Source: an uncultured virus (IMG/VR IMGVR_UViG_3300032278_000001) (taxonomy: Duplodnaviria; Heunggongvirae; Uroviricota; Caudoviricetes). Taken from it: DNA of 64,000 bases. The DNA lies in the IMG/VR virus record IMGVR_UViG_3300032278_000001, one strand, 5' to 3'. A program made the translations under genes and the position numbers. This document shows positions 8,942 to 51,700 of the stretch, piece by piece; position 1 is the stretch's first letter; each line of letters opens with the position of its first letter. Under the pieces are notes generated by a model, which was not told where the DNA came from, did no database searches, and worked only from the letters and a program-made list of their open reading frames with translations.

Positions 8942-9274
8942 ATGGAGAAATGTAAGAAAGAACGTTACAAACCCTTACCTGATTATCTTGCTATAGGTCC
9001 TTCTAGTATACATGGAGCGGGTATATTTGCTACAGAAGATATACCAAAAGAAATAATTATAGGTATAACTCATATATATGACCCAGAATTTCAACATAAC
9101 TTTATAAGAACTCCTTTAGGAGGATTTGTTAATCATTCTGAGTCAGCTAATTGTGAATTGATTGAAGAAGATAATGATTACCATTATAAGAAATTAAAAA
9201 CACTTAGAAAGATAGAACATGGAGAAGAACTTACATTAAAGTATTCTCTTTATGATATATGTGATTACTTATAA
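8942..9274 (+). CDS. SET-domain protein (putative lysine methyltransferase)
   Basis: SSIHGAGIFATEDI, GFVNHSESANC, IEHGEELTLKY. Confidence 0.88.
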   Translation: MEKCKKERYKPLPDYLAIGPSSIHGAGIFATEDIPKEIIIGITHIYDPEFQHNFIRTPLGGFVNHSESANCELIEEDNDYHYKKLKTLRKIEHGEELTLKYSLYDICDYL

Positions 9275-14905: not shown

Positions 14906-14916
14906 ATTATATTAGT

Positions 14917-32337: not shown

Positions 32338-35300
32338 TATTTGGATTTCTTAGCGTTATAACCCTTATCAGCTGCTTGAAGATTTAGATTCATTGTTTGT
32401 TGATTTAGAAGAAATTGAATTGTATTTTGCTCTAAATTTGCCCAAGTTTGAAAACCTTTATGATCTCCAACATCTTCTTTATATATTTGTGTTACATCTA
32501 CAGGATCATCAACATATTGATGTAAGTCAGCATCCCATGTTTGAATATATTTTTCTGCTTGAATAGAATTAATAACATTACCTTCTTCATAAATATTTCT
32601 AAAAATTACCTTACCTCCACCTGGTCTTGTAATTACAACAGGTACTCCAGATTGTAAATAGTCCTCAAAATGATGTCTTGGTTGATTATCCGCTTTATTA
32701 AAGAATTCTCCTTTTGGCCATATAACTGTTAATGTATTGGATGTTAAACCTGCTGCTTCTTTATCACCATCTTGTACTATAGGATCCATATATGCATTAG
32801 CAAACTTCTCATCTAACTGTATAACAACACCACTATAATCTGTTTCTGGATTACCATCCGCAAAAGCTAATTCCCTTCCACCTATGTTTTGATTATATTG
32901 AATAACAGCTTTTAATCTACTTTCTTTACTTTTATCAGAATCTTCATTACTAAGAGAACTTAAATATAATTGTTTTAATATTTCTTTACCGTGTGGCATG
33001 TTACTAAGTTCTACAAATGATGATGATTTATCACCTGCCTTAATAAACATTTTTCCACTACCTTTTAAGTAGTTCTCTATAAATTGTGCCCATTGATATT
33101 CACCAGGATTATCACCAGGAGCATTTGCTATATCCATAGCCCCACCAAATGAAGGTGATATTGATGAACCTGCACCATATTGATCTGAACCTTCATACCA
33201 AGCATCAGCATTAAATACTGGAAAACTGTCTTTAGTACCTGTTCCTTTTTCTTGTACTGCATTTACAGTCTCGGTTAATAGTTTATATTGTTCTTTAGCT
33301 TGTGCTGTTGCTCCAACTTTATCAAATGTATATTTTACTCCAGCAATATCATAAACACCTGCTTCTGCTCTTAATCCTGATTGAAGGCTTTCTTTTGAAA
33401 ATAAAGATTTCTTCTTTGGTACATCTATAACACTTACCTTAAGGAATTCATCACTTTTAGGTTTAAGATCAATTAACTTTTTCTCATTCACTTCTTTGTT
33501 TGCTCCCGTGAAATAAGGTAACCATTCTCCCAGTGCTGTTAGAGTAGAACTACCTGTACCTTCAATTCGTACTTCATCAAATGCAACAGATGATACAAAA
33601 TCATTAACAAATTCAGTTTCAGTTTTATAGTTATAATTTTTATCAAAAATACTAATACCATATTCATCTAGAAGTTTTTGAAATTTTTGACCTCCTGAAT
33701 CATTCGTTACAACAAGATCATATGCTGCTTTATTTGCTTCAGCCTGCTTCTCTCTAGATGTTTTAATCATTAATTGTTTACCATCTAAGATCTCATCCAT
33801 ACGTGTAATACCATTAAGCATCTCTGTATAATCTCCCAACCAACCATTAGTTCCATCAAAACCTTCTATCTGTGTCATCATTTTATCATAGAGTATATTA
33901 ACATTTGCTGAATTTCCTTTATCAAGTTGTTCTTTTAATTGATCCCAGTTGTTAATTCCTAAACCTTGAAGCATGTCAGCTCCACCTGCCCCAGAAACTC
34001 CATCTACTCCTGAATCTTTTAGATTTTTATAATATTGCTGTATGATAGCTGGATCTACTTCCATATCCTTTTTTTGTTCACGAGCAGGTAATATTTGTGC
34101 AAATAACTCCTCTGTAGTAACTGGCTCACCTGTTGCAGCATTCATCTGATTGTAAAATTTTACAATCTCATTAAACATTTGTGTTTCAACATCTAATAAT
34201 TGTTTAGCATCCCTCTTCTTATTCTTTTGATCAATTGTAAAAAGAGTAAATACTTCATCATTATCCTCATCAAGAGCATAATTAGCTGTATTAGCATTTC
34301 CTTGTCCATCCCAAACATGTTGTGGTACACCTGGATTCTCTGCTTTAAGAGATGCTTCAAACGCTTTCTCTATCATTTTTAGATCACTTTTATATTTTGC
34401 TAATGATAATCTATTACTCTGTTTAACTTTTTCTAAGTAACTTTTTGTTTCATCCCATTCTGTTTTAGCATCTACACTTGCATATGAATTGGCAGCTAGA
34501 TCAACATCTTTTGCAATAAGGAAGGACATCTCTGCTATATATGCTTTTGTAAGTTGATCATTAGGTCCCATATTTTCCTTAGTTACATCATTATAATTCT
34601 TTGTAAGTGCTGCTTTTGCCTTCTTAATTGATTCTAATTCACCTAAGGTAGATAACCATTCTATTTCTTCTTTACTAGCATTTATAATACCATTTCTTTT
34701 TCTATATTGGTCCCAATGTTGTTTTTTTACCTTTTGATTTTTTTCTTTCTCTTTTAAATCATCAATTGCCTCTTGACCTTTAACTGTATATTTTTCAATT
34801 GTATCATTTATCCAAACATCTAAAGCTGCATCTACACCTCCATATTGCTCTTGATTTTCTTCAGACCATACTCTTCCATTAACATATGATCTTGTTTTAT
34901 AGTACTCCATCATCTTAGGATTTTGTAATACAACAGCTTTAATATAATCACCTGCAGGATCTGTATATGTCATCTTACCTTCCTTATTAAGAACTCCTGT
35001 AGGTTGTGCTCTTAATAGACTACCATTTTTTTGTGTTATCTTCCATTGACCGTTAGGTGTGAATCTAACATCCTCAATATTCATATCTAATTCCTTAAGA
35101 GCAGCAATCCCATCTGTTATAAGGTCCATCTTATCCACCCATTTAGGAAGTGGTTTATTCATGGCTTCTTCATCTGTAGCATTTACAAAATCATCCATTT
35201 TAAATTGAAGAAATTGTTCAGCACCTTTCCAGTATTTTTTATTTTCATCAGGATTACTACTGTTTAATAATGATTGACCTCTTGCCATTTGTTTTTTATA

Positions 35301-35642
35301 CTCTTTAGTATAAACAAGATCTCTAACTAGGTTTTTATTCTCATAGAATGGTTTAAACAATGCTTTAGCAGAATCAACGTTTTCTTGTAAAGAAAGATCT
35401 AATCCTGCAATTTGTTTCATTTTTGGAATTAAATGTTCAGTATATTGATCCCTTGTGCTTTTATTGTTAGCTCTTGATAAATCTGCATGAACAACACTTC
35501 CATACATGTTATTCATATGCTTGTAGTTGGTATTATATCTGTCTTGTCTAATGTCTAATACATCAGATAAAAACTTATAATCAGGAGTAAATGTCTCCGT
35601 CTGTGGTATATAATCCGTTACGTTTGGTAGGTACGTTGCCAT
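32337..35642 (-). CDS. Putative virion cargo/ejection protein, 1101 aa
   Basis: Mostly helical; coupled to the vRNAP gene (TAATG overlap); position matches crAss-like cargo genes. Confidence 0.65.
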   Translation of the reverse strand: MATYLPNVTDYIPQTETFTPDYKFLSDVLDIRQDRYNTNYKHMNNMYGSVVHADLSRANNKSTRDQYTEHLIPKMKQIAGLDLSLQENVDSAKALFKPFYENKNLVRDLVYTKEYKKQMARGQSLLNSSNPDENKKYWKGAEQFLQFKMDDFVNATDEEAMNKPLPKWVDKMDLITDGIAALKELDMNIEDVRFTPNGQWKITQKNGSLLRAQPTGVLNKEGKMTYTDPAGDYIKAVVLQNPKMMEYYKTRSYVNGRVWSEENQEQYGGVDAALDVWINDTIEKYTVKGQEAIDDLKEKEKNQKVKKQHWDQYRKRNGIINASKEEIEWLSTLGELESIKKAKAALTKNYNDVTKENMGPNDQLTKAYIAEMSFLIAKDVDLAANSYASVDAKTEWDETKSYLEKVKQSNRLSLAKYKSDLKMIEKAFEASLKAENPGVPQHVWDGQGNANTANYALDEDNDEVFTLFTIDQKNKKRDAKQLLDVETQMFNEIVKFYNQMNAATGEPVTTEELFAQILPAREQKKDMEVDPAIIQQYYKNLKDSGVDGVSGAGGADMLQGLGINNWDQLKEQLDKGNSANVNILYDKMMTQIEGFDGTNGWLGDYTEMLNGITRMDEILDGKQLMIKTSREKQAEANKAAYDLVVTNDSGGQKFQKLLDEYGISIFDKNYNYKTETEFVNDFVSSVAFDEVRIEGTGSSTLTALGEWLPYFTGANKEVNEKKLIDLKPKSDEFLKVSVIDVPKKKSLFSKESLQSGLRAEAGVYDIAGVKYTFDKVGATAQAKEQYKLLTETVNAVQEKGTGTKDSFPVFNADAWYEGSDQYGAGSSISPSFGGAMDIANAPGDNPGEYQWAQFIENYLKGSGKMFIKAGDKSSSFVELSNMPHGKEILKQLYLSSLSNEDSDKSKESRLKAVIQYNQNIGGRELAFADGNPETDYSGVVIQLDEKFANAYMDPIVQDGDKEAAGLTSNTLTVIWPKGEFFNKADNQPRHHFEDYLQSGVPVVITRPGGGKVIFRNIYEEGNVINSIQAEKYIQTWDADLHQYVDDPVDVTQIYKEDVGDHKGFQTWANLEQNTIQFLLNQQTMNLNLQAADKGYNAKKSK

Positions 35643-35701: not shown

Positions 35702-38700
35702 TTATTTCATTCCTCCTCTCATCCATTGTCTTAATGCTGCTCCACTTCTTCGTCTTTGTCTTTCTCCTCCATATCTAGCTGGATAACCAGCTACATTTCC
35801 ATCAGTTCCATATCCACTAGCAAAATTAGAACTATTGCCTTTATTTGCTGCTATATAGTTTTTTGCCCAAATATTTGCTTCTGTATTGTCTAATCCTAGA
35901 CCATCTGGTTTTGGTGTACTTGCATGTGTAAAAGCTTCTGCAAATGACATTCCAACTGTACCTCCACCTCCACCACCAACTTCATCTTGATATGCTTTTG
36001 CATTAGCAAACTCAATTAGACTTTGATTATTCCATGGTGTTGCTTGAGGATTAATATTATAGTTAGGTCTCAATTGACTCATTGCTTGAGTATTCTGTGC
36101 ATTAGTAAGAAGAGCGTTTTGCATCTTTACAATATTCTCATTATCAGCTATTTGAGTATTAATTCTATTTGTTCCTACAGTATTTACATCATCTACATAT
36201 TGTTTTCTTGCTAACATATTTGCTTGATCTATAGTCTGTTTCCCTGTCATATTTGCTCTATCAAGAGCATTATATTCTGCAACATCTCTTGATTGTACGT
36301 CTGCTATTGACTTTCTGTTTTCTGCAGCAGCTTGACTAAATATTGTATAAGGATCAGCTCCAGCGTCAATAGCTGTTTGAGCAAGAGAGTTACTAGCATG
36401 AATTCTTGATAAAGGATCATCTCTTAACATATCTGCAGGAGTGAAATTATATTGTTCCATCATAGGATAAAAGTCCTCTCTCATACTTTTATTCATAATA
36501 GAATTTGTTAAGTTATTCTGATCTTGTCTCCATGGAATCATTGGAACTCTATCAGGTGGAATATAATCTCCAGGAGCATGTTCACATTCACAATTATGTG
36601 CATTCCACATATATGCATCAGTTACCCCTCCTTTTGTGGTACCCTCAGCATCTACAGCTAATGCATTTTTCTTTTCACATGCTATTCTAGCAGCTTCAAC
36701 ATCAAAATCCATAGGTTTACCTGGACAAGGCGGATCTTTTTCAGGTGTAATAATAGGATTAACAGCTGATGAAAATTGTCTTTTACTTGTTTTTCCAATT
36801 TTAGCATCTATACTTGATACAGGATTACCCCATTGATCACGGTGCTCATCCGTTTCCCAATCTTCTCCTTCTGGTAATGTTTCTATATTTGTAAAAAGTC
36901 CAGATGTTGCCTCAGTACGTTTAGCAATGTTTAATGCTCTATACATACCTTGGAAATTCATACTCATTGTTTTAACTTCATCTTCTGTTTCTCCATTCTG
37001 AAAATATCCTAAACTTTTTGCATGTTCATAAAACTTTCCTCCAGCATCTCCAGGATCTAAATTATGTTGATCAAGATCATGTAATATTTGATTATATAAG
37101 AAATAATTATCTATCATTTCCTCTTTAGTACCTTCTTTAAAATGTTCTTCATTATCACCTATATGAAATGATTCACCTTCACCGCTCATATCTTTTCTTC
37201 CCTTTGTATATACATCCCACCATACATCTCTAGCAGTTCCAAAATCTTCATGTCTCATAACATCTTCAAATGTTGTATGTGTTTTGTATGCTGTTTGATA
37301 TGATATACATTCACCATTTGCATCTACATCAGTACACGTATAATCAACATCTCCTTTTGCACCATGAGATTCACCTACATGATCAGCTGCATCATGATCA
37401 GGTATTCCATCATCATTATGATCATGTGATAAATCAATTTCAGTCTCATCATCTATAACTCCACCCATAACAACACATCCAGATCCCATCCAATCTAATC
37501 CTTCTGGACATTTACATTGACAGTTTGTACCACTTTTAACCCATGTAGCTCCCTCACTTGCAGCTGCTTCACATTTTGCTTGAAGTGCAGGATCACAAGG
37601 ATCTGTTGTTTCTTCACTTTTCTGAGCTTTAGGTAATGATCCTCCATATACAAATTTATGTAAAGGATTAGTTGCAAAAGGATCTCCTCCATATTTTTTC
37701 TTGTAAAAATCCATTACTTTTTCCTTTCCACCTCCATCCCATATATGTTGATTACCAGGTCCTCCTGCACTTCCCATTCTCAACTGAGCTAAATGATTTT
37801 TTATTTGATAATACTGTTGAAGAAGTTGCTGTTTTGCCTGAATAGGCATATTAGGACTCATCTGCAGCATCATTTCTATTTGATGTATTCTTTGTACTAA
37901 TTGTAATTCAAATTGTTGTTTAGTACCTTGAAATTCTTCAGCTTCATGAAAGGGTTGCTGAATAATTTCCTCTTCCAATTGGGGTGTTACATTTTCAACC
38001 ATGCACTTCTGTATATCTCTATCTACTTGTTGTAATTTTTTATGTAATCCTTCTACAACATCTCTATTATCATTGTTCCAACCACTTTCCCTAAATGGGT
38101 CTATTTCCTGTAATAATTGTTGTCTTATTATCACTAATTCTTGACATTGTTGAGGAAGAGGATTTGCTCTCTGGTCAGTATATTCACTTGGTCCTCTTTC
38201 TCCTTGAAATTTAGGTACATGACCACCACATTCATAACATGGTTTTGCATCTCCACCATAAACAAATTCACTTAATGGAATTTGGGAACCAGTGAATGTT
38301 TTATCCCAAGGACCTGAAGGTATATATTCTTCTACATTTGTGGATGGAGTTACATTACCCCATGGATCACTAAATTGAGCTCTAGTGGCACGTCCTAAAG
38401 GTAGTCCTCTTCCTGTTGATATAGAACTTTTTAAATTAGATATAAGATCAGCACGATGCACTGGACTGTTAATTACTGATTCTGATATTGTTGGATTACC
38501 ATATTCATCTTTAATTTGATGTGATTTCTCATGTGGTATAGTTCCAAAATCTCTATTCTCTAGATTAATAGCATCTGCATTCTCTTTAGCTATTAGGTTT
38601 GAAACTGCAACATCATAATCTGCTTGAGATAAATCATGAAATTGTGCATATTTTTGTTCATCACCATGTCTGGCACTTGGTAATGATCCTCCATATCTAG

Positions 38701-39766
38701 CCATACCTGGAGGTGGTATCATTCCTGGAGGTGGTCCTTGTGGAGGCATTCCTTGACCTTGTTGTTGCATAGCCATCATCATTTCTGGTGGCATTCCACC
38801 CTGTGATGGTCCACCTTGTGGAGGCATTGGTGGAGGAGGTCCTTGTGCTGACATACCTTGAGGTGGTCCTTGTTGTCCTTGAACATCTTGTATTACTTTT
38901 TGGAGTAAGGCCATAGCTTGTTCTTCTGGTATTCCCAATTTAACTAACTGTTGCATTATTTGTTCAGGTTGCATACCTTGTTGTAATGCTTCAATAACTC
39001 TTGCTATTATTTCTTGTACTCCTTGAGAAGGTCCTTGTTGTGGCCCTTGTGGGGGTCCCTGTTGAGGTCCTTGTGGTCCTCCTGTAAAATCTTGTAATTG
39101 TGGAGCTGGTTGTTGCATAGCCTGTTCTCTATTGTCTGGACTTTGTAATGGAGCCTGTTGTGTTTTTTCTTTAGCTGCTTTTATTTCTTCTAGTTTAGCA
39201 ATAAATTCTTTTGGGTCTATTCCTTTAGATATAAGAAATGGATATGCTGCTAGTGGTACACTAATATTACCTTCTTCATCTAAAAAATCTTTTTTTGCTT
39301 CTGCCATAAAAGCAATTTTAGAAAGTTGTAATTTATTTTTATCTAACATCAATTCTGATGTCTCGTCTGATATTTTATCTGAATGTTCGCTATCCATATT
39401 TTTAATAAATTTATTTAACTTAAACCTTTTAGATGCCCAAGCTGGTGTTTGTTTCTTCTTTGAATCAAGGCCTAATTCAGCTAACTCATCAGTGGAAAAT
39501 TTCATTTTTGCTGTATCAGAAAATATAAATGATTGAGGTGGTAAACTTAATGGAGTACCACCTTCTGAATGTCTGTTACCTCCTATATTATATAACTCAT
39601 GTGCACCATCATTATCCAAATCTGTTAATACTGTCTCACCCTTTTCTGCCTCAAGATTTGCTTTATCTCTAGGTACTCCACCTAAAGCCATTGTTTTAAT
39701 AACTTCTCCATTAGCTAGTTTATATCCTTTAGGTAATCTCTTTATTTTTATTTTTCTTTTTGCCAT
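35702..39766 (-). CDS. Putative cargo protein, 1354 aa, with Q/P/G-rich region and YGG motifs
   Basis: N-terminal EAEKGE...HSEGG segment; repeated YGG(xLPKAQ) motifs; QGP repeats. Confidence 0.7.
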   Translation of the reverse strand: MAKRKIKIKRLPKGYKLANGEVIKTMALGGVPRDKANLEAEKGETVLTDLDNDGAHELYNIGGNRHSEGGTPLSLPPQSFIFSDTAKMKFSTDELAELGLDSKKKQTPAWASKRFKLNKFIKNMDSEHSDKISDETSELMLDKNKLQLSKIAFMAEAKKDFLDEEGNISVPLAAYPFLISKGIDPKEFIAKLEEIKAAKEKTQQAPLQSPDNREQAMQQPAPQLQDFTGGPQGPQQGPPQGPQQGPSQGVQEIIARVIEALQQGMQPEQIMQQLVKLGIPEEQAMALLQKVIQDVQGQQGPPQGMSAQGPPPPMPPQGGPSQGGMPPEMMMAMQQQGQGMPPQGPPPGMIPPPGMARYGGSLPSARHGDEQKYAQFHDLSQADYDVAVSNLIAKENADAINLENRDFGTIPHEKSHQIKDEYGNPTISESVINSPVHRADLISNLKSSISTGRGLPLGRATRAQFSDPWGNVTPSTNVEEYIPSGPWDKTFTGSQIPLSEFVYGGDAKPCYECGGHVPKFQGERGPSEYTDQRANPLPQQCQELVIIRQQLLQEIDPFRESGWNNDNRDVVEGLHKKLQQVDRDIQKCMVENVTPQLEEEIIQQPFHEAEEFQGTKQQFELQLVQRIHQIEMMLQMSPNMPIQAKQQLLQQYYQIKNHLAQLRMGSAGGPGNQHIWDGGGKEKVMDFYKKKYGGDPFATNPLHKFVYGGSLPKAQKSEETTDPCDPALQAKCEAAASEGATWVKSGTNCQCKCPEGLDWMGSGCVVMGGVIDDETEIDLSHDHNDDGIPDHDAADHVGESHGAKGDVDYTCTDVDANGECISYQTAYKTHTTFEDVMRHEDFGTARDVWWDVYTKGRKDMSGEGESFHIGDNEEHFKEGTKEEMIDNYFLYNQILHDLDQHNLDPGDAGGKFYEHAKSLGYFQNGETEDEVKTMSMNFQGMYRALNIAKRTEATSGLFTNIETLPEGEDWETDEHRDQWGNPVSSIDAKIGKTSKRQFSSAVNPIITPEKDPPCPGKPMDFDVEAARIACEKKNALAVDAEGTTKGGVTDAYMWNAHNCECEHAPGDYIPPDRVPMIPWRQDQNNLTNSIMNKSMREDFYPMMEQYNFTPADMLRDDPLSRIHASNSLAQTAIDAGADPYTIFSQAAAENRKSIADVQSRDVAEYNALDRANMTGKQTIDQANMLARKQYVDDVNTVGTNRINTQIADNENIVKMQNALLTNAQNTQAMSQLRPNYNINPQATPWNNQSLIEFANAKAYQDEVGGGGGGTVGMSFAEAFTHASTPKPDGLGLDNTEANIWAKNYIAANKGNSSNFASGYGTDGNVAGYPARYGGERQRRRSGAALRQWMRGGMK
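38700..39160 (-). repeat. Low-complexity Gln/Pro/Gly/Met repeats (GPQGPQQGPPQG...) around a small helical segment
   Basis: Seen in translation and as repeated ggtccttg units in the DNA. Confidence 0.8.
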
Positions 39767-39768
39767 AA

Positions 39769-42700
39769 TTATAATATTTCTATATCTGCACCAGCAGTTA
39801 TTAATTCTTGTAACAATTGTTCATCTATATCTACTTGTTCTCCACCGTATTTTTGTTCTCTATTACTAAGATTTATTCCAAGTCCAATGTTAGCACCCCA
39901 ATCATTTGTAACTGGGTTATAATTTCCACTAAATCTAAAAGGTCCTGTTTGTAAATATGGACCAACAGTAAGATCTTTATTTAATAAATCATAATTTGCA
40001 TATCCTCCAAAATTAGTTCTCCATTTATCTTGCCAGTTATTTTCAAAATATCCAAGATTTCCTGTAATATTTGCTAAAGCTCCCATATTAAGTTCAGGAT
40101 TTTCTTCAAGAAGATTGGTATATGCTCTAAGTCCTCCTGTTATATTAAGATTTCCTTCAATTCCACTTCCTCCTGATCCACTTGTTGATGTTCCTAATCT
40201 TAATCCTGCAGTAGCTTTAAGAGCAGCATTAGCATCACCACCTTCAGGATTATAACCAAATTCAAATTGAAAAGGATTAATAGTACCCATAAAAGGAGGT
40301 GTTCTATAACTACATCTTGAACCTGTTCCCTCTCCACAATCATAATATAAAGGTTGATTTCCACTAAGTTTATAATCTCCAGTATTACTTCCAGATATAT
40401 TAACTCCTTCAGTAATAGATGGAATATAAGAATCTGTTAATCCAGTTTGAGCTTTTGGTAGATCTCCTCCCATCTTATAATTACATCCACATTGTGATTT
40501 TAATTTTCCACAAATAGGGCATATATTTGATCCTCCGTTTTTCATTTGTGCAAGAGATAACTTTTGATTTAATATATCTTCTTCATTATATCCTATTTCA
40601 GTAGGTAGTTCCTCTGTAAATCTTCGTAATGATGTTAAAGATTCTGGTTCACCACCCATTTGATATTTTGGTGCTAAGTAAGGATTCTTTATATGCATTT
40701 CAGTTCTTTTATGTTGTCTATTTTTTTCTTCAGTTTTCCTTTTCTTCTTATATGCTGCATCTGTATTTTCTCCAGCAACCTGCATTGCAACTGGGTTACT
40801 TTTCCAAAGATCTACCCATTCATCATTTTCATCTAAATATGAATAATCACCATATAGTGATTGTCCAGTTATTGGATCTTTTTCTGTACTAGCATGTTTA
40901 GACTTATCATATATTTTATAATTTATTGGTTGAAGGTCAACACTCTCTCCATTTATACTAGCATTCCCACTTGCATCCAGTAATACTGGAATTAATTCTC
41001 CTGCTTTATTATATAGATTCTGATAATAATCACCCGTTTTCTCCTCATTTGTATATGTGTAGCTTTTGTTAGGGTTAACCTTTATTTTTTTATTATTATG
41101 TTTTACAGTAATGGTTTTATTTTGCTTCATATTCTCCTCATCATATATTTTTTGAGATATAGTAGATTTTTCCTCTGCAATTTCTTCATCACTGTCCCAC
41201 CATTGTGCTCCAAAAATAGGATCTATACCTTCATGCCACCATCTTTGCATTCTAGGAAATGCTCCATATTTTTCCATTGCAGGATTACGTCTATCTTCAC
41301 CAAAGACACCTTCCCATGCATCAGAAATAGGTTGACCTTTTTGATGCATAGCTCCTGTAACTGTATTCATTGCATCTGGAACCATTAAACCTCTTGCTAT
41401 AGTTTTCCAGAACCAAGGATTATTAATAAATTTACCATAAGGAATTTTTGAGTTTCTTAAGGAGTTAGCTAAGGTTTTTCCAGATTTATCATAAGGAGCA
41501 GTAACTCCAGATCCTGGTGCTCCATATATCATCTCCCCCATATAATCTAAACCTTGTGGGATTTTTAATCTACTTAAGTGTGCTGCTGGATTAAGTCTAC
41601 TCCATCCTGTAGGTTTTTGAGTTAACCATTTACCTGTATTTATTTTTGCTGTAATTTCACCATAAGCTGTTTTCATTGCATTTGATCTTGTAAGATTCTT
41701 GTCTGCCTTCATTAAATCTTCCGCAAGTTCTATAACCTCTTCTTTTATTTGAGCAAATCCTCCTATGAAACCTTGTTCAATATTTTTAGTTATTTTAAAA
41801 TTAGGAATTACATTCCCACCTTTAATTCCTGTTTTTCCACCTAATCCAACACCTGTTCCACTAAACGGATTATGAATTGTTCTTCCTCTAAATAAATCTG
41901 GTGATTTCCAAGGTTCTGCCATAACATTAAATGGATTATGGATACTTAACTGTCCACCAATTCTTGGGGGACTATTCCATGCATGTAGTCCTGGACCCAT
42001 ACCATGCATAAAGGCTCTTGCAGTATTGGATTTCCATTCATTTTCAGGTAATTGAAGCCAGTGCTCTAAATTTTCCATATCATCTAAAGTAACTGTAGCA
42101 CCTACAAATGGTGCTGGAACATTACCAGCAACTTCTACTCCTGCATATAAAAATCCTGGTGGCAAATTTGGATTTTCAAACCAATTTCCTACACTATTAT
42201 CACCAATTGCATTTGCTAAAGTATTACTCCATTCTCTTAATTTACCTGTATTAAGTAATATTCCTGTACCAGGTCCAGTAGGATCAAGATCAAATTCCCA
42301 TCCAACTCCTAATGGGTCTGAATAAGGAAAGTAGGTTCTAAAACCACCACCAGGTCCTCCTGCTGAAGTAAATGTAAATGTAGGTTCTACACCTGTTCTA
42401 TCCCATTCATTCATAAAAGAGGTAGTATACTCCTCATCTTTCCATTCTCCAGTTTTTGGATCTAACCCTGGAATCATGTATGTTTGTTCATTACGCAATC
42501 CTAAGTGATCTTGCCATGCACCTTCCCAATTAATAGATAAAGGATTTAATGATCCCTCATCATCTGTTTGCATAAAGTTAGGATTCATACGTAATTGAGG
42601 AAAAAGATTAGATGGTATATATGGTCCAATAGTTTGTTGATTATTCTTTGCATATTCCTGCATCTGCTGTACTTCTGATGGTGAGAATTGTCCTTGATAT

Positions 42701-44496
42701 TCTTTTAATTCTTTTCCATCTCTTGCAAGTTCTGATACAACAGCATCATCCATTCTGAGTAATCCTGTAAGTGTATCAAAATTACCCCGTGTTCCTTCTG
42801 CGTTTGCTTCTAGAGGATCTACTAGATTATCAATAGTATTCATTCCCATGAACTTCTTATTATCCATTCTCTCTGCTTCTCTTGCATCAGCAAAATCAGT
42901 ATAGATACTAGCAGCATCTTTTACCATATCTAAAATTGCAACAGGTTTTGAATTTGCAATTTTATCAATAGCATAATTACCAAAATTAGTTGCTTGTTGA
43001 CCAAGTGTATCTCCCCACATTTTTCTTTTCTTTGCTCTTTGTTGTTTGTTTGCTAATTTTAATGCTTTTTTGTCAGCCTTATTTTTTGCCTTTAGACTCT
43101 TTTGTGCAGTCTTCATCTGATCTTTATCTAATGTATTATATATCTGATAACCCTCATCATCATATTGTTTTAAAACTGGTTCTCCATCAACCCATTCACC
43201 AGCTTCATTTTGATTTTGTCCTGGTATCATAGAATACTTACTTCTATCTGCAAAAGGTACTTCTGCATTCATATTTACAGACATCACTCCCTCATCATCT
43301 ATACTACCAATGGCTGTATTAGCCCATCCTCCTTCAGGATCCAGATCCTCTGTTGTTGGTGTTACACCTTCAACATCCTCCCAGCTTCCCTCCGGATAAA
43401 GGTTTGTTCCCCATACTTCTCCGTATGCACTTAATGAACCCATCATAGGCATTCCTGTCTTAGGATCTATATCTTTCGCATCAGCAATACCATAACTTTC
43501 TGCTTGAGCGGCTAATGCTACATCTAAATCTTCTTTCCCTACAGCACCAGCAGCAAATTGATCATTCCAATTTTCAAATACTACTTCTTCACTATTTTGT
43601 GCTTTAGGAAGTTGACCTCCATATTTTACATCTGTTTTTGTTTTATCATCAATATCCTTATTTATATTCTTTAGATATTCCTCAGTTATTTGTTTTTGAG
43701 ATTTAGGATGAATATTTTCATTAACATCTACCTCAACTATATCCTTTTTAAAATACTCATCACTTATATCTTTCTGTTTTGAATATGGATCTTTAATGTT
43801 AAAAGGATTATTTACATCATATGGATTTGTTATGATTTCAGTAGGTTCATTATAATCATTATATTTAGTTGTGTTCCAACTAACAACTTCATTATCTTTA
43901 TTAAAATTAAATGATTCAGCATTATAAGCTTGAAGTTGATCCTCAGCAATATCTCCTGATGTACGTACTGATCCATCTGAATTAACATATTCAACCCTTC
44001 CTGTTACTGGATTAACTCTTCTTGCTGTAAATCTTCCTGACTTAACTCTCTCACTGTCAGCTCCAAAGATTGGATTTAACAATTTAGCACGATTTTGACC
44101 ATATGTTAACATAACTGGATTATTCTTCTCATCCATACTTAAGTATCTGTTTCCTGTATCATATAAAGGATTAGGTATTTTCTTATTGTTTTCATCAACT
44201 TGAAAAGTTCCATCATCCTTCATTAAGAATTCTGTTTCATCTCCTGACAAATCACCAGCTTTAGCTGTATTTGTAAGAGAAAACTTCATATAATCCTTAG
44301 CTTTTATATCTTTATTGCTAACATTTTTAAAATTAGAAAGTTTGTTTCCAAGGTTTGCTATCTTAAACCATGGATTAGTAGCAGGAAAAGGTCCACCTGG
44401 ACCATGTTGAGGTAAATATCTTGAATAATAATCTTGAAGTTCATCTTGAGAAACTTCAAAAGTTTGTTCTTTATTTTTTATTTTTCTTCTTGCCAT
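39769..44496 (-). CDS. Putative cargo protein (about 1575 aa) with YGG motifs and a C-terminal beta-barrel-like module
   Basis: Probable ATG at 44496 (MARRKIK); repeated GG motifs; amphipathic strands near the C-terminus. Confidence 0.7.
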   Translation of the reverse strand: MARRKIKNKEQTFEVSQDELQDYYSRYLPQHGPGGPFPATNPWFKIANLGNKLSNFKNVSNKDIKAKDYMKFSLTNTAKAGDLSGDETEFLMKDDGTFQVDENNKKIPNPLYDTGNRYLSMDEKNNPVMLTYGQNRAKLLNPIFGADSERVKSGRFTARRVNPVTGRVEYVNSDGSVRTSGDIAEDQLQAYNAESFNFNKDNEVVSWNTTKYNDYNEPTEIITNPYDVNNPFNIKDPYSKQKDISDEYFKKDIVEVDVNENIHPKSQKQITEEYLKNINKDIDDKTKTDVKYGGQLPKAQNSEEVVFENWNDQFAAGAVGKEDLDVALAAQAESYGIADAKDIDPKTGMPMMGSLSAYGEVWGTNLYPEGSWEDVEGVTPTTEDLDPEGGWANTAIGSIDDEGVMSVNMNAEVPFADRSKYSMIPGQNQNEAGEWVDGEPVLKQYDDEGYQIYNTLDKDQMKTAQKSLKAKNKADKKALKLANKQQRAKKRKMWGDTLGQQATNFGNYAIDKIANSKPVAILDMVKDAASIYTDFADAREAERMDNKKFMGMNTIDNLVDPLEANAEGTRGNFDTLTGLLRMDDAVVSELARDGKELKEYQGQFSPSEVQQMQEYAKNNQQTIGPYIPSNLFPQLRMNPNFMQTDDEGSLNPLSINWEGAWQDHLGLRNEQTYMIPGLDPKTGEWKDEEYTTSFMNEWDRTGVEPTFTFTSAGGPGGGFRTYFPYSDPLGVGWEFDLDPTGPGTGILLNTGKLREWSNTLANAIGDNSVGNWFENPNLPPGFLYAGVEVAGNVPAPFVGATVTLDDMENLEHWLQLPENEWKSNTARAFMHGMGPGLHAWNSPPRIGGQLSIHNPFNVMAEPWKSPDLFRGRTIHNPFSGTGVGLGGKTGIKGGNVIPNFKITKNIEQGFIGGFAQIKEEVIELAEDLMKADKNLTRSNAMKTAYGEITAKINTGKWLTQKPTGWSRLNPAAHLSRLKIPQGLDYMGEMIYGAPGSGVTAPYDKSGKTLANSLRNSKIPYGKFINNPWFWKTIARGLMVPDAMNTVTGAMHQKGQPISDAWEGVFGEDRRNPAMEKYGAFPRMQRWWHEGIDPIFGAQWWDSDEEIAEEKSTISQKIYDEENMKQNKTITVKHNNKKIKVNPNKSYTYTNEEKTGDYYQNLYNKAGELIPVLLDASGNASINGESVDLQPINYKIYDKSKHASTEKDPITGQSLYGDYSYLDENDEWVDLWKSNPVAMQVAGENTDAAYKKKRKTEEKNRQHKRTEMHIKNPYLAPKYQMGGEPESLTSLRRFTEELPTEIGYNEEDILNQKLSLAQMKNGGSNICPICGKLKSQCGCNYKMGGDLPKAQTGLTDSYIPSITEGVNISGSNTGDYKLSGNQPLYYDCGEGTGSRCSYRTPPFMGTINPFQFEFGYNPEGGDANAALKATAGLRLGTSTSGSGGSGIEGNLNITGGLRAYTNLLEENPELNMGALANITGNLGYFENNWQDKWRTNFGGYANYDLLNKDLTVGPYLQTGPFRFSGNYNPVTNDWGANIGLGINLSNREQKYGGEQVDIDEQLLQELITAGADIEIL

Positions 44497-44522
44497 AATT
44501 TTTAACAACAATAATCTTATAC

Positions 44523-44539
44523 TATAATATACTAAATTC
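44523..44539 (-). promoter_or_regulatory. Putative late promoter motif ATTTAGTATATTATATA
   Basis: Identical to 6903-6919; in a short intergenic gap upstream of the cargo gene. Confidence 0.6.
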
Positions 44540-44551
44540 TAAGCACATAAT

Positions 44552-47500
44552 CTAACTTAATATTGACTTCATGTAATCTAAGACACTCATATTTAATACT
44601 CTTGCTTTATCATAATAAACTCTATTAAGTTTATCATATAATTTTTTTCCTAATTTTTCAGAGAACATCATATAATCTCCATTTACATAACTTGAATATA
44701 ACTTAATTTGAGTATCTAATGGCATATTTTTAAATATACCATAATCTCCAAGTTTATGTGCTTCTTTTTTAATCTCTAATGGTGTTTTTGCTATTGGTTC
44801 TGGTATGTTAATGACTTGTCCTTTATATAAAGGTTCTGTATCAATTAGATTATTATATTTATTTATATCTTTCTCTGTAGTATTATATTCTTTTGCAATA
44901 CCTAATAATGTTTCTTCATCATTAATATTATAAGTTGTTCCTCCTTCTTTATATTCAGGAATAATCCCAATTTCTTCTAGATGTTTAGTAGCTAAACCAG
45001 ACAATTCTCCTCCTAATTTATATGTTCTTATTAGTTGTTTTGTTCTATTTACTGATCCACCTTCTTTATATGAATAGAATTTTTTTGCTTTTTTCTTATA
45101 GTCTTCAAACTTTTTAGTACTCTTTATACGGCTCTCATATTTCTTTTTACCATGATCCTTAATATATTGCTCAGGAAACATTATTAAATTTATATAATCT
45201 ACAGTTTCTTGAGGTATAGTCCATCTTGTATCATCTTTACTTGAATCTAATATTGTCATCCAACTATCCATATCAAATGGATCTCTGCGTTCAGCTTCAG
45301 GAACTAATATTGGATTACCATTCTCATCAAGTTTATTTCTAAAACCACTTTCTATAACATTTCCCTCCTTATCTTTTATAGTTTCATTTGTAGCAACATA
45401 ATTTATATTCTTAAAGAATGTAGGTGTGTTACCTCTACCCCAGTTGTATGCAGATAATGCTCTTGCTAATTTCTCATTATCAGATGTAGCATCTGTTACA
45501 AATTCAGCATTCATTAAACTATTCATATAATATCTCTGAAATAATAAGGAATGATGTATATTAGTTCTATCTGCATTTTCAGGAAGAATACCTTTTCTGA
45601 TTGCATCATTCCATGCATCTGGCATTGCTTGAACTAAACCTAATGCACCTTTATTACTCCCTGCTTTAGGTTTACCATCTGATTCAATGTATTGTTGGTT
45701 TATTAATAGATCATCAGTTAGTAAAGAATTAGTAGTTATTTCTTTATTTAATAATTTATTATCTAAAAGATAATTATTTAATGCATTATATGTTTGATCA
45801 CCCCAACCATTGTCTTTTTTAATATCATAACCTTGTTCAAGTAACCACTCTTGAACTTCTCCCACACCTTTTTCATCCAAACCTCTATAATATTCTTTAT
45901 TTGCCCAACCCTTCTTTGTTCTATTAGTGTAAGGGCTAAATATATTCATTCTCCAATCTTTATATTTAGGATTTCTAATATATTTTCTAAATTGTTCAAT
46001 TGTAGCTAATGGTTTTTCTATTTTATATTCATCCCAACTTAATGGTATATATGATTTATTTTTAGCACTTTCTGGATCTTCTGGTGGTGGTGGTGGAATA
46101 GGTACTGTTTCATTTTCATTTGTAAGATATCTCCAACTATCTGCAGGATTATACCAATTCCATTCTCCATCTGGATAAATAGATCTTTCTGTAGCAATTT
46201 CCCAATCAAACTCACCTTTCTTTTGAAATCTAGGCAACTCTTTACCATATCTAGACATTCCTTCTGGCATTCCGGTATTAACATCAGCAACTCTATTATT
46301 AAAATCTACCAGACTCTCATCATTAAAAAACTTAAAGTTTCTATCATCTGTTAGACTAGGATGAGGATTTTCATTCAGATATTGTTTGTATTGTTGTAAG
46401 ATCTCATTAGTCATTGGGGTTGTTCTATAATCATATCCTATAGCATTGTACATTTTCCATCTTAATGCATCAAGATCTGACTTTCTTTCATAAGGAGAAG
46501 CATCATGATCATTAAGAGTACTCCTGTCAATTCCACTAGCATCCATTAACTCATAAATAGTGTTTATGTCAGTTTCATTAAGTGCAAAATCTTGAGCACT
46601 TTTAGCACCTGTTGACCCCATCATATGTCCTAACTCATGAGCAGAGGTATCATCTAAAGAACTCTTAAGCTGTTCTGTACTTCCATCTCCTCCCAAATCT
46701 ATATTAAGCTGTTGAGACTGTCTAGGAGATAACATTATATCTCCTGAATGATCACCATGCTGTCCTGTATAAGCTCTTGACCCACTCTCTCCAAATAATA
46801 TATTATCACCTAAATATTTTCCTGCAGGAAATCCTCTTCCATATTCTGACCAAAATAAAGCATCATCTTCATCTCCTGAATAAAAACTACCGCTAGGAGC
46901 GGTCTCATCTCCAAAAGGAGTATATAAATTTGACGGGTTAAATGCAGTATCCATACTAAAATCCATTCCTTCTTTCTTATATAAATCACTTAACAGAGAA
47001 ATTTTATCTTGAATCCTAAATATTCTATTGGTATGAACAGGATATGCAGGATCATCTCTGTCTTTAGCCATACTACTCCCTGGTCCACCTTTAAATGTAA
47101 CATCTTCAGTATTGTAGTGATCTGCAGTATCATCATAATTAAATGATGCACTTGCTAAATGTTCTTCTCTTTTTGCAATTATATCATCTGCATTTTCATA
47201 TCCAGCATTAATTAACTTTTCTCTGTATAAATCTGAATTAATACCCTCTGTAAAAAAGTCTTTTTGTAATTGAAAGTCTTCTTTTTTAAATGGATTTACT
47301 TTACTTTCAAAAATTTGTTTAAAATAATTTTCTTGCTCTACTGATTTAATTTGAGGATGAAATACATCTCCTGATTTATATCTCTCTATAAATTCTCTTT
47401 TAGACATCTTTCCAAATCCTGGAGAGTTCTTATACGTTTTATATAATTTTTTTAATTCTTTTTCAGTTAAGTTTTTAAAACTACCATACTTTTCTCCTTC

Positions 47501-48742
47501 TTCTGGAGAAATATAAGTTCTAAACTTGTCACTATCTTCATCATATCCCATATTTCCTCCAGGAGTTATTCCCTCGTCTCCCCATCCTGACTCAGAACCC
47601 TCAAACCACTCTGATGCCCATCTTCCCTCAGTAATTGCATTGTTTGGAGCATCATCAGGATTAGTTCCAAAAGGACGTAAATATCTTTGTGATCCTATTT
47701 GTTGTTGATATTCAGGTCTTACATTTCCATTTTCATCATATATTTTATTTATAAGACTTTGATTAAAACGAGCTCTATTCTCAGATTTTAATCTATCTTC
47801 ATCCCACACAAGAGGATGTTCCATGTTTGTATTTCCATATTCATTCTTAAACATATAAGGATTAAAGTTATAACCTGAAGTTTTAAAATCATCCCAAGTT
47901 CTTCCACTACCTTCCTCATTGTCTGGATTATAATACTCATAAGGATCAAAACCTTTTACAAACCAATCAGGATTATATGTTCCTGTTTTATCATAGTACT
48001 CCCCCCAGCTATCTGTTTCATCAACCCAATCTCTCGTTTTATATGTAAAATCTCCTGTAGGCATTGTGAAGTGTTCTTGAGGAATATATTTATATTGACT
48101 ATAATCAATTGGCTTAACCTCACTATTTATATCTTGAAACTTTGGTAATGAACCTCCATACTTTGCTTCTCCAGGTTGTTGTATCTGATCAGAATTTTCT
48201 GGAGGATAAGGAACAAAACCTTCTTGGTTATATTCTCCTTGAGGTGTCATAGTTGGATTTTTCCATGTTCCATCAACTGCAAAACTGGCTGCATGTGATT
48301 CATTCTCAAAAGGACCATATACTTCATTACGTTTTAAAGCATATTGATAATTCTCCCACCAACCATCTCTTTCATTTATTTCTTCAAAATTTTTCCATTC
48401 TCCATTTTCATCTTGAAATATTTTTGGAAAAGCAATCCATGTGCCATCTTGAAGTCTTTCATGTTGCATTAAGTGGGTACTATCAGGAAGACCAATAGAT
48501 CCTGCTCTACCTTCTCTACCTTTTACAGTTAATGCTGGATGTTCTGTTACAATAGAATTTGGTTCAAATTGATGATGACCTGAATAAGGAGGTAAGTATC
48601 TATTATTAGCCATTAAAGGAATTCCTGTATTGGTCATATCTATTATACCATTATCTCCTGTCCTTATATCTAGACTGTCTTCATTTCTAAGGGGAGAGTT
48701 ATCACTATAACCCATCATTGATATGAATTCTTCTCTAGTCAT
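44552..48742 (-). CDS. Virion-associated muralytic multidomain protein: zincin, peptidoglycan-binding, lytic transglycosylase (SLT), LysM
   Basis: AHELGH; VGEVQEWLLEQGY...DNGWGDQT; IESDG...GALGLVQAMP...AYNWG...ETVDY; YNINDEETLLGIAKEYNTT...LYKGQVINIP. Confidence 0.85.
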   Translation of the reverse strand: MTREEFISMMGYSDNSPLRNEDSLDIRTGDNGIIDMTNTGIPLMANNRYLPPYSGHHQFEPNSIVTEHPALTVKGREGRAGSIGLPDSTHLMQHERLQDGTWIAFPKIFQDENGEWKNFEEINERDGWWENYQYALKRNEVYGPFENESHAASFAVDGTWKNPTMTPQGEYNQEGFVPYPPENSDQIQQPGEAKYGGSLPKFQDINSEVKPIDYSQYKYIPQEHFTMPTGDFTYKTRDWVDETDSWGEYYDKTGTYNPDWFVKGFDPYEYYNPDNEEGSGRTWDDFKTSGYNFNPYMFKNEYGNTNMEHPLVWDEDRLKSENRARFNQSLINKIYDENGNVRPEYQQQIGSQRYLRPFGTNPDDAPNNAITEGRWASEWFEGSESGWGDEGITPGGNMGYDEDSDKFRTYISPEEGEKYGSFKNLTEKELKKLYKTYKNSPGFGKMSKREFIERYKSGDVFHPQIKSVEQENYFKQIFESKVNPFKKEDFQLQKDFFTEGINSDLYREKLINAGYENADDIIAKREEHLASASFNYDDTADHYNTEDVTFKGGPGSSMAKDRDDPAYPVHTNRIFRIQDKISLLSDLYKKEGMDFSMDTAFNPSNLYTPFGDETAPSGSFYSGDEDDALFWSEYGRGFPAGKYLGDNILFGESGSRAYTGQHGDHSGDIMLSPRQSQQLNIDLGGDGSTEQLKSSLDDTSAHELGHMMGSTGAKSAQDFALNETDINTIYELMDASGIDRSTLNDHDASPYERKSDLDALRWKMYNAIGYDYRTTPMTNEILQQYKQYLNENPHPSLTDDRNFKFFNDESLVDFNNRVADVNTGMPEGMSRYGKELPRFQKKGEFDWEIATERSIYPDGEWNWYNPADSWRYLTNENETVPIPPPPPEDPESAKNKSYIPLSWDEYKIEKPLATIEQFRKYIRNPKYKDWRMNIFSPYTNRTKKGWANKEYYRGLDEKGVGEVQEWLLEQGYDIKKDNGWGDQTYNALNNYLLDNKLLNKEITTNSLLTDDLLINQQYIESDGKPKAGSNKGALGLVQAMPDAWNDAIRKGILPENADRTNIHHSLLFQRYYMNSLMNAEFVTDATSDNEKLARALSAYNWGRGNTPTFFKNINYVATNETIKDKEGNVIESGFRNKLDENGNPILVPEAERRDPFDMDSWMTILDSSKDDTRWTIPQETVDYINLIMFPEQYIKDHGKKKYESRIKSTKKFEDYKKKAKKFYSYKEGGSVNRTKQLIRTYKLGGELSGLATKHLEEIGIIPEYKEGGTTYNINDEETLLGIAKEYNTTEKDINKYNNLIDTEPLYKGQVINIPEPIAKTPLEIKKEAHKLGDYGIFKNMPLDTQIKLYSSYVNGDYMMFSEKLGKKLYDKLNRVYYDKARVLNMSVLDYMKSILS

Positions 48743-51700
48743 TATCTTTGTGATACATTAATTTTAGTGTTATTTAATCTTAATAACATTTTTCTATCTC
48801 CTGATACAGTTCTTCTAAGAATAACATTATTATAGTAATGTCTAAATTTCTTTCTTTGAAGAGCTGGTTTATTATAATTTAAGTTTGCTGCATTTAAATC
48901 TCTTATATATCCATTTAATCTAGTTATATATATTGGTTGCTCAACACCTGTAAATTCACCTCTATCATTTGTAATATCCCAGAATTGATTAAATCTATAC
49001 TTTTGTTCTTCTTTACTATATAGTATTCTAATATCGTTTACTCCTATGATTGGATATGTAAGAATTAAAGGAACATTATTTTTAGGAGATAAATCTAACA
49101 TAAGTAATCCTGAAACTTGTTCTGTATTTCGTATTATTGCTTCATCAAAATTAAAATCTAAATCATGCCATCTATCTCTACCAATATTTGGTTGTATATT
49201 ATTTTTATATACATATGATTCTAAATAATACTCAACACTTCTTACAGTATTAACAATTTGTCCTGTTGATTCAAGAAGATCTATTTCCCATGGATAATCT
49301 ACCCCATAATAATTTGCATATAAATCTGTTCTATAATTATGTTTCCATATACCACCTACAATATAATTTGCAGGTACACAATCATCATATTCCCATTCAC
49401 ATGTTACAGGATCAGGATCTACCCAACCAGCTGTTCCCGCATTTATCCAAGCAGTGGTAGGGAAAGCAGGACAAGTTCCTGTCTGAGTAAGTGTAGCAGC
49501 TGGATTTGGTGGATTAATACAATCACAGGTAACTTTCTTACACATTGGTATATTGGTTGATGAACATGTTTGTCCTGGTAGCATATTATAAGTAGGAAGA
49601 CATTCACATTTTACACATCTTGGTGGTGGTGCAGGATCTGGTAAACAAGGATTAGGTTGAGGAGTATCCTCTACCCATCCACCAGCAGTATCACACTCAC
49701 ATTCTATTAAACTATCAATAATCTCAACAGCAACATCATCAAAAGTGGCTGGTGTTACAGCATATTGTTCATTAGGTGGATTCTCTACTAAGCAATCAGA
49801 GTTAGCTGCCCAACCTGGTGCAGGTGCTACACTACTTGAGAATACAGCTTTTGATTCAATACCAGCTCCCCAGAAATTAGAATTCATCCAAGCATTATTA
49901 TATGTATCATCTAATGCTCCACCACAACAACCATCATCTGAACAACTATCACATGCACTATCTGTAATAAATATTACCATTTTTCTAGTAGCACTACCAC
50001 CAGCTATTTGTGCCATACTCTGAGCAACAGCAATATCATATGATGTACAATTAGTATTTGGTGGTCCTGCTGCAGTTGTACAATTAGTATTTGTCCAATT
50101 TATAGCAGTACAAGGATTACCTGTTAATGCACCTGAAGTTGTATTATTTAATTGACCAGCAGAACTCCATGTATTAACACCTACATTAATTGTTCCTGCA
50201 CCTGCAGGTTGGCCTCCTATTGGACAAGGAGCACCAGTAAGATCAGTATCCATACCTGGTGATAATAATTCTATCATTCTCTCAACAAATTGTCCTTGAA
50301 TTTCAAACAAGCAAGGAGCACAACCGGGAGGATTAGTACTTCCTGACATATCAATAGAGAATACAATATCTAATGTTCTAGCAAAATTATTAACTGTTGC
50401 ATCTTCTGTATCAGCTATTGCTGGTAAATTTGAAATGTCTAAGAAACCTAAATTTGTTTGTTGTATGTTTAGACAACATTCTGTTCCATTCCATGCGTAT
50501 TGTGGTGGACATCCTGGAACAGTTGTTGTTCCTGTATTTGTAGTCATAAAGTGATTTATACTATGCATAGCAAGTTCAGGATGCCAATCATGGAATGAAA
50601 TCCATGCGTTTGCTTTAGCATCAAAACTTACTGTCCATGATACATCTTCAAAAAATGCTTCATCATCTAAAAAAACTTGATAATCTTCACCTGTTTCATC
50701 TCTATAGAAGAAACCAAGACAAGGATAATAATCAACATTAGCTAACCATTGTTCTTTAAGTACATAATCTCTCTTGGAAAAATATACAATATCATTATTT
50801 GGGTCATATATTGTTTGACAACCTGCTGCCATTAATGGATTGTCTACTGCATCTGGACAATCTTCAATAGCTGGAAATTGTGCAAGTAATTGAGATGGTA
50901 AATATTTGTTAAACCACCACTTCATTCCTTGATTTGCAATATTAACTAACCCTTTACTGGTGTATTGAAATATTTTACCTTGTGCTTGTGATATATAAAA
51001 TACACCTGCTGGAGTACTAACAGCACTTCTAGCACTTTCACAAGATCCATATTCATGTGAAATATCTGAATTAACAACATTCATAGGAGGTTTGCTAAAT
51101 AATCCTCCATCACCTATTGTATATTTAGTTTTTGATTGAGTTTGTAAAACATCAACACCCATAAATTTCTTAGGAGAAACGTATGGAAATAATATTAATG
51201 CACCTATTTCAGATATAGGTAATATTGTATTTACTTTTGATTTAAAATCTACATAATTTTTAGGAAGGAATACTCTCCAGAAATCTTTCTTAGCTTCTTG
51301 AGTTGATTGTAATGAATATATTAATCTTTTAGGATATGTAGTCCAACAAGTTTCAGCTATTAAAGGATCATAATAATTAGGCTGAATCTCTCCAAAAGAA
51401 GCAGAAATACTTAATTGAAAATATTTTTTACTTAATGCCTTATCATATTTATAGAAGTTACCATCATTAATAATCTCAGCATCAAATAAATCATCTACAT
51501 CTGTATATTCAAATTTGTCATAAAATCTTTTATTCTTAGTCTCTTCCCAATCTCTAAATGCAAGGTTTATTTCTGACTCAACAAAGAAATCATTTATACC
51601 ACTATTGTGTGTATACATATACCCATCTTGTACTGTGAAAAGACCACCAGGATTACTAAGTGCTGCTGATCCTGGAACTATAGCTATAGACCCACCAACA

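Follow-up and report, generated by a model that had tools for sequence, protein, structure and literature searches.

A recurrent Gly-Gly motif at the module joints of putative crassvirus cargo proteins, a possible signal for loading and processing

In a 64,000-nucleotide stretch of DNA from an uncultured Caudoviricetes virus (IMG/VR IMGVR_UViG_3300032278_000001; the whole stretch is referred to as the window), a short peptide motif recurs in three adjacent minus-strand open reading frames (ORFs) of 1396, 1580 and 1354 amino acids (aa), designated here gene A, gene B and the C1-like gene. The motif is real and conserved, and as a signal where the modules of the presumed crassvirus cargo polyproteins join it is apparently unpublished. 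No description of it was found in the literature searched, including the available text of a review (PMC10136315) and of the structural study of crAss001 (PMC10172136); most subscription papers, such as the original crAss-family genome analyses, lay outside this search. Our best reading, adopted tentatively and with a little under even confidence, is that cargo is recognized by this signal and that recognition is linked to a cut N-terminal to Gly-Gly (GG).

Together, the three ORFs (4330 aa) contain 16 matches to the pattern [YFM][AKQE]xGG or YGG (7, 5 and 4 copies), compared with 2.36 in shuffled sequences (1000 shuffles, maximum 11). The other 26 ORFs of the window (16434 aa) contain 5 copies, and 5.0 are obtained by shuffling. 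A longer version, G[GK]x[LV]P[KRS][AF][QR], was found seven times in the three ORFs, in none of the shuffles and nowhere else in the window. Furthermore, the three ORFs have 49 GG pairs, of which 16 belong to the motif, versus 5 of 92 elsewhere in the window. These patterns were drawn up after the motif had been seen, which makes the statistic for the window, taken alone, partly circular; the homologues serve as an independent check. Among 120 homologues of the 1354-aa ORF, a slightly wider pattern yielded 482 matches against 88±9 expected. An earlier note, generated by a model from the sequence, had described the motif as shared by these ORFs about 16 times. All 17 sites that it listed were recovered within a few bases, and two had been missed, MALGG near the N-terminus of the C1-like protein and MRGG at its C-terminus.

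According to sequence comparison, the unit is (L-P-K)-[AFYM]-[QK]-x-G-(G), and the YGG-xLPKxQ peptide that the earlier note took for the unit consists of two units in tandem. In 75 of 117 cases, x-G comes after the string LPK[AFYM][QKE], and in 61 G[GK]-x comes before it, indicating that this string is the head of a second unit and that units are often arranged in tandem. The second glycine is optional. At the homologous C-terminal site, which 104 of the 120 C1 homologues carry, another residue stands in place of this glycine in 74 sequences; 72 of these 74 sites precede Glu, a share that is partly circular because the count favoured matches with E, Q or D in the next position. Glu directly follows GG at 99 of 454 sites, and a Glu-specific (G-x-E) rule was rejected, as it suits one site class only.

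Relatives gain, lose and swap modules at the motif, which marks the joints between modules. With motifs and equal decoy windows masked, an alignment end was located within 20 residues of 202 of 344 internal motif sites, versus 136 of 444 decoys. Of 6284 alignment ends, 183 fell at a site in both partners for the motif and 46 for the decoys; in these statistics, related sequences are not independent. Two close relatives (P0003 and P0007) are missing entire modules that lie between motifs in the 1354-aa ORF, and in P0277 a deletion of exactly 680 residues in the 1580-aa ORF runs from the degenerate DGKEL site to YQMGG. With the 1396-aa ORF, its relatives have residues 1-203/209, 214-833 or 844-1396 in common. 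In the comparison of the 1580-aa ORF, some gaps in P0275, P0276 and P0278 do not end at motifs, and poorly aligned regions are involved. The cultured gut phage PhiCrAssBcn1 lacks residues 266-375 of gp45, the C1 protein of crAss001, a stretch between two motifs, and crAss002 has only module 254-329 in common with gp45. In cr112_1 (L188:2009-5058), the gp45 homologue is represented by two genes around an HNH-like gene, the second of which begins just before the motif equivalent to 424-428; an intron is possible. In the tail of the first of these genes there is weak similarity (E 0.016) to the tail of gene B in the marine family.

Of the earlier proposal, the placement at module boundaries and the exchange of modules are supported, and the motif is conserved in homologues. 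The statement that the three proteins share no other evident similarity is not quite accurate. A Cys-rich mini-module of 22 residues (CPxCG...CGC; 40465-40545, minus strand) is located between two gene B motifs, and copies of about 70% identity are present inside C1-family proteins of other phages; their sequences suggest a module moving between different genes.

Motif counts by gene class, obtained from the non-redundant proteins of 79 related viral loci, revealed enrichment in genes A and B (315 versus 79 in shuffled sequences) and in C1 (126 versus 33). The muzzle (30 versus 26), the C2-position gene (36 versus 26) and the virion RNA polymerase (vRNAP; 16 versus 33) show no enrichment. The initial remark that the full motif was not seen in the vRNAP, muzzle and fibre genes is confirmed. 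Likewise, no excess was observed across 80 head loci in portal (6 versus 6.5), scaffold (0 versus 3.6), capsid (1 versus 17.7), ring or auxiliary proteins, and the crAss001 portal, gp31 and gp32 are without the motif. Head genes were studied in three complete relatives (G003, G004 and G006), those of the virus itself being outside the window. Few motifs are present in Fpv3 gp30 and Lbo-JY46, so the signal is unevenly developed among relatives.

The motif behaves as more than a module separator, acting as a portable signal, because 110 of 458 sites are found no more than 40 residues from a protein terminus (7.7% expected) and because it also closes a standalone gene. This gene, of 172 aa, corresponds to a module inserted in C1 of other phages and stops three residues past its motif. 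Motif-bearing genes were additionally observed beyond the cargo block (L088:13550-15616, L098:5664-6179 and L104:10080-15446); they have modules in common with cargo genes and represent candidate extra virion cargo.

The three ORFs are placed in the Crassvirales cargo block because the muzzle and two ring genes adjoin them on one side, and the 1101-aa gene and giant vRNAP-associated genes on the other. In the 79 related loci, this structural block keeps its order, the muzzle and ring genes coming before the cargo genes and the giant vRNAP genes, and capsid (PF23898) and portal genes were identified in the complete relative G003. Gene A consists of one or more N-terminal modules (1-195), a module at 196-832 and a third at 833-1225 containing an SLT lytic transglycosylase, followed by three short units (1225-1268), LysM (1275-1314) and a conserved C-terminal domain. 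Among the gene A domains proposed earlier, SLT (1018-1111) and LysM correspond to Pfam matches and the peptidoglycan-binding domain to a weak one (E 0.067), and the supposed zincin amounts to HELGH at 702 alone, with no Pfam match and Atlas matches below 0.9. Gene B has a conserved tail beyond its last motif.

The 1354-aa ORF probably starts with a C1 portal-binding domain and is treated here as C1-like, its membership being unproven. This N-terminal domain, which comprises 1756 clusters at 50% identity, was modelled with a predicted local distance difference test (pLDDT) score of 85.9 and is confident from about residue 31. The model showed a weak match to crAss001 C1 (7QOG_M; Z 5.5, root-mean-square deviation (rmsd) 5.2, 93 aligned residues, the longest alignment among tied rows) and no Foldseek match. 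Comparison of the ORF with crAss001 gp45 gave no PF25725 (crAss_CARG1) match, a BLASTP E of 0.78, an hhalign probability of 0.2% and a profile E of 2.7. Its profile matched C1-position genes of csAssE-Sib (E 1.6e-12) and also phi17:2 gp41 (annotated as a virion structural protein) and Fpv3 gp30 (E 1.2e-6). Gene position, the weak fold match and the virion annotation of relatives suggest that the three ORFs are probably packed and injected cargo. The GG of MALGG is kept in 45 of 46 aligned relatives, and residues 26-28 have a pLDDT below 50 in the domain model. The P/Q/G-rich low-complexity linker of the C1-like protein (38700-39170, minus strand) surrounds a short helical segment and differs in length among close relatives. 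At L016:8455-10946, the C1-like gene is represented by two ORFs, of 401 and 428 aa, that abut each other.

According to the mechanism that we favour, the three ORFs would encode crassvirus cargo (ejection) polyproteins, in which the unit would act as a recognition signal read at head or tail assembly, bringing cargo modules into the particle. The chain would be cut at the signal, most likely on the N-terminal side of GG, and the tag would then head the freed module. Freed modules could take separate places, such as a portal-bound C1 domain, a tail-barrel helix and peptidoglycan hydrolases. Recombination between the repeated signals may add, delete or swap modules in frame, because any signal-flanked module would be loaded and freed.

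The cultured phage crAss001 offers a view of the product. Its gp45 contains eight motifs, with GG at 20, 209, 263, 332, 373, 427, 562 and 828. In the sections of PMC10172136 that describe gp45, two of its segments occupy compartments 420 Å apart, 214-245 in the tail and 425-552 on the portal, and the modelled portal-bound segment opens with an intact A425-F-G-G. Both segments begin at or just past a motif, and the portal-bound chain in 7QOG comprises 126 residues, aligned up to 551. Since the modelled segment starts with A-F-G-G, the site at 425 is not cut after GG, and a cut before 425 would still be possible. Given this intact AFGG and the frequent variation of the second glycine, cutting after GG is unlikely. 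Both proposals of the earlier note, processing sites or loading tags, survive; cleavage at GG that would leave neo-termini after it is not supported. Seven of the eight gp45 motifs have N or S five positions ahead of GG, followed by a hydrophobic residue (-5 and -4, respectively). Zincin-like enzymes cut before hydrophobic residues, and the pattern would fit such a cut as a candidate register. In addition, the gene split in cr112_1 and the separate B and C1 genes in the family of the window indicate that a covalent link is not needed.

The crAss001 virion gel was then considered. We re-matched 13 peak lists from matrix-assisted laser desorption/ionization (MALDI) analysis, as provided in supplement 8 of PMC6235969, to 30 phage proteins, with band masses assigned by order. 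The bands followed the expected mass order (gp47/50, gp49/44, portal, gp26/22, gp22/25, gp25, gp23, capsid, gp36 and gp29), with ring and muzzle peptides in the top two bands. The portal (92.9 kDa, 12 copies) was represented by 6 of 13 Arg-ending peptides in band 5 and the muzzle (6 copies) by 12 of 20 in band 4. Intact gp45 (90.7 kDa, 12 copies by cryo-electron microscopy, cryo-EM) reached at most 1 of 16 in any of the 13 bands (Fisher p versus portal 0.004 in band 5 and 0.026 in the best band of gp45), and every band was accounted for by proteins other than gp45. In our judgement, the gel weighs about three times as heavily for processing as against it.

Several points weigh against cutting. 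In the same gel, the motif-free gp46 was likewise not identified (1 of 11 at best), just 7 peaks were recorded for the 58-kDa band, ring proteins show up in the top bands only, and co-migrating fibre proteins could suppress the gp45 signal. No gp45 fragment was detected in any of the 13 bands, and no semi-tryptic peptide or neo-terminus backs cutting, so the gel data hint at cutting in the particle and do not prove it. In the model of Bayfield et al., gp45 is a single continuous chain, and the available text of their paper (PMC10172136) makes no mention of motifs, cleavage or proteases; the four gp45 peptide regions that it names cover no motif. The residues flanking GG vary between lineages and between sites, and no one cut register suits all. 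Scaffold, capsid and portal are without the motif, unlike in T4 or SPN3US. Finally, no known prohead protease was identified among the 83 ORFs of G003 with Pfam, nor among 29 of its unassigned ORFs with PHROGs, many ORFs having no assignment. The conserved gene after the capsid gene (L089:8219-9238, G003) was considered as a hidden protease and rejected: its end is RecA C-terminal-like and no protease was among the matches listed, its N-terminal half being barely tested. Its model (pLDDT 83) matched the RecA C-terminal domain at residues 271-337 (Z 9.9, rmsd 1.7, 61 aligned; Atlas uninformative), and the product looks like a DNA-binding protein.

If the signal is cut, a candidate enzyme is the putative zincin (HEAFH with a downstream E-x-x-A) of the 5806-aa vRNAP-associated ORF. 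Both elements are kept in the window, in three complete relatives and in crAss001 gp47, and they constitute the single protease motif common to all of them. The vRNAP-associated zincin has been noted as conserved, its function being left open in the portion of that report available (10.1101/2020.03.07.982082). The complete scheme, an undescribed crassvirus cargo-processing system in which a portable Gly-Gly signal loads modules and is cut by the zincin of the vRNAP complex, the cargo proteins being polyproteins with modules added or dropped by recombination at the signal, is doubtful as a whole. Alternatively, a host peptidase could be responsible, by analogy with P22 gp7. The crAss001 aspartyl protease gp66 had no match in five relatives in a search without a positive control. 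The 5806-aa ORF also carries AAA_33 and weak GNAT inserts.

There is a considerable chance that the motif is instead an uncut docking tag, which would bind a repeated prohead site (scaffold, portal wing or another cargo protein), the intact chain being loaded and later threading portal and tail. Such a tag would explain the sites near termini, where a cut separates nothing, as well as the standalone gene and the motif genes beyond the cargo block. It is also consistent with the negative search for a known prohead protease in G003 and with A425-F-G-G, which is low-confidence in the monomer model and ordered on the portal, as suits a binding role. P22 ejection proteins are recruited via the scaffold, according to the relevant section of PMC8402733. 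However, intact gp45 is absent from the gel spectra, twelve chains would need to traverse the channel of the portal, gp46 and the vRNAP proteins, which lack the motif, are packaged all the same, and the binding partner is hypothetical. Complex prediction for residues 128-447 of a relative's scaffold (34-row alignment) with a 36-residue motif peptide scored 0.00, which counts neither way.

We consider it improbable that the motif is a passive joint, that is, a flexible linker read by no protein, whose coding sequence provides micro-homology for recombination. Indels and fusions inside the motif, and DNA copies that are 61-80% alike across about 40 nt, are in line with this explanation. Nevertheless, conservation is at the protein level and the codons of motif copies differ synonymously, their Gly codons (22 GGA and 10 GGT) being like the remaining ones; a DNA-level repeat as the primary feature was rejected. 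Moreover, the motif has a specific consensus of 7-8 residues, is kept across families from marine to gut phages, and is kept at termini where there is nothing to link. Ubiquitin-like processing, in which a protease of the JAB or Ulp1/adenain type would cleave behind GG and the C-terminal GG so released would be conjugated by an E1 (ThiF), is suggested by adjacent ThiF and Prok-JAB genes in crAss001 but is largely refuted and very improbable, given that ThiF was found in 0 of 4 complete motif-rich relatives of the window (control found in 12 of 14), that the second glycine is so often replaced and that GG is intact in the gp45 segment. The two crAss001 genes (gp76-77, L086:35394-37792; ThiF is E1-like) may form a ubiquitin-like module unrelated to the cargo motif.

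The genes of the window resemble crAss001 gp45 (PDB 7QOG chain M; PF25725; Bayfield et al. 2023, PMC10172136) in lying between muzzle and vRNAP and in carrying the same kind of GG motifs, one of which, in gp45, opens the portal-bound domain. They differ in being three much larger genes rather than one, with an N-terminal C1 domain, SLT and LysM enzyme modules and the LPKxQ extension. Prohead-protease maturation in T4, phiKZ and SPN3US also involves a short motif that internal head proteins have in common, often in several copies. The motif is S/A/G-X-E in phiKZ. For SPN3US, A-X-E is given in the pages available of PMC10052503. The G-x-E variant at one C1 site (72 of 104) adds to this likeness; in contrast, capsid, portal and scaffold are unmarked here, the motif is internal and C-terminal between retained modules, and a prohead protease was not found. 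The T4 capsid-targeting sequence and the P22 gp7 leader are short signals on ejection proteins, serving as tag, cut site or both; the T4 leaders are both, as proposed here. The mature end of P22 gp7 is Lys-Gly-Gly-Lys-Gly; the cut is made by a host enzyme, and the phage itself has no head protease (PMC8402733, same section). Those signals are single and N-terminal, whereas 5-8 copies per protein punctuate the polyproteins here and serve as exchange points. Di-glycine protease sites share the hydrophobic-x-(x)-Gly-Gly appearance. Their enzymes (adenain, African swine fever virus pS273R, SUMO/JAB) cut after an obligatory GG; in the present motif, the second G varies and GG is intact in the one solved site, gp45 AFGG. 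By analogy, the signal would work in the manner of the capsid-targeting/processing signal of T4 or of the gp7 leader of P22, rather than through T4/SPN3US-type maturation or di-glycine processing.

Crassviruses, the commonest gut phages, are also abundant in the sea and have some 5.5 MDa of cargo to load and eject. The motif predicts which uncharacterised ORFs are virion cargo, also beyond the cargo block, and delimits hundreds of uncharacterised injected modules. If it is cut, the published model of one gp45 chain spanning capsid and tail would change, and the continuous-thread ejection model would need revision. The eight gp45 sites make cultured crAss001 a direct and cheap test system.

Table 1. 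Motif sites and genes discussed in the text (window coordinates).
Feature	Position	Strand	Remarks
Gene A, 1396 aa	44552..48742	-	First gene after muzzle
Gene A joint KYGG-S-LPKFQ	48134..48163	-	GG at 48152-48157; homology to relatives stops at 203-209 or begins at 193-215
Gene A joint RYGK-E-LPRFQ	46223..46252	-	G-K variant at 46241-46246; three relatives, common over 214-833, end here
Gene A cluster YKEGG, YKLGG, YKEGG	44939..45070	-	Ahead of LysM
Gene B, 1580 aa (1575 from ATG)	39769..44511	-	Modules bounded at 298, 599, 1286, 1326, 1348 and 1556
Gene B joint KYGG-Q-LPKAQ	43597..43626	-	GG at 43615-43620
Gene B degenerate joint ARDGKELKEYQ	42694..42726	-	Left edge of 680-residue deletion in P0277
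Gene B cluster YQMGG, MKNGG, Cys-rich mini-module, YKMGG-D-LPKAQ	40447..40665	-	
Gene B last motif KYGG	39841..39852	-	About 24 residues upstream of stop
C1-like gene, 1354 aa	35702..39766	-	Basic leader, motif, probable portal-binding C1 domain (~31-200), P/Q/G-rich linker, motif-bounded inserts, conserved C-terminal region
C1-like N-terminal motif M26-A-L-G-G (MALGG)	39677..39691	-	Directly ahead of C1 domain
C1-like joint RYGG-S-LPSAR	38666..38698	-	
C1-like cluster FVYGG, YECGG-H-VPKFQ	38204..38266	-	
C1-like cluster KYGG, FVYGG-S-LPKAQ	37622..37696	-	
C1-like C-terminal motifs RYGG and MRGG	35711..35776	-	
1101-aa gene in C2 (gp46) position	32337..35642	-	Assigned by position alone; motif at background in this gene class
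Muzzle gene	48742..55107	-	PF25731, E 3.5e-18; ring genes (PF24228, PF25702) next upstream
HEAFH zinc-protease motif with downstream E-x-x-A	25084..25098	-	In the 5806-aa vRNAP-associated ORF (14917-32337, minus strand); candidate processing enzyme

Further observations concern the relatives and the remainder of the window. Crassviruses have otherwise been described from Bacteroidota. The best muzzle match was found in PP438436.1, labelled as a Leptolyngbya (cyanobacterial) phage, which contains a crassvirus-type cargo block. In G003, two genes (L092:6991-10926 and 13485-16835) encode SprB repeats together with a type IX secretion C-terminal sorting domain. A small SET-domain gene (8942-9274, plus strand) adjoins a class II ribonucleotide reductase in the window and is common to two complete relatives.

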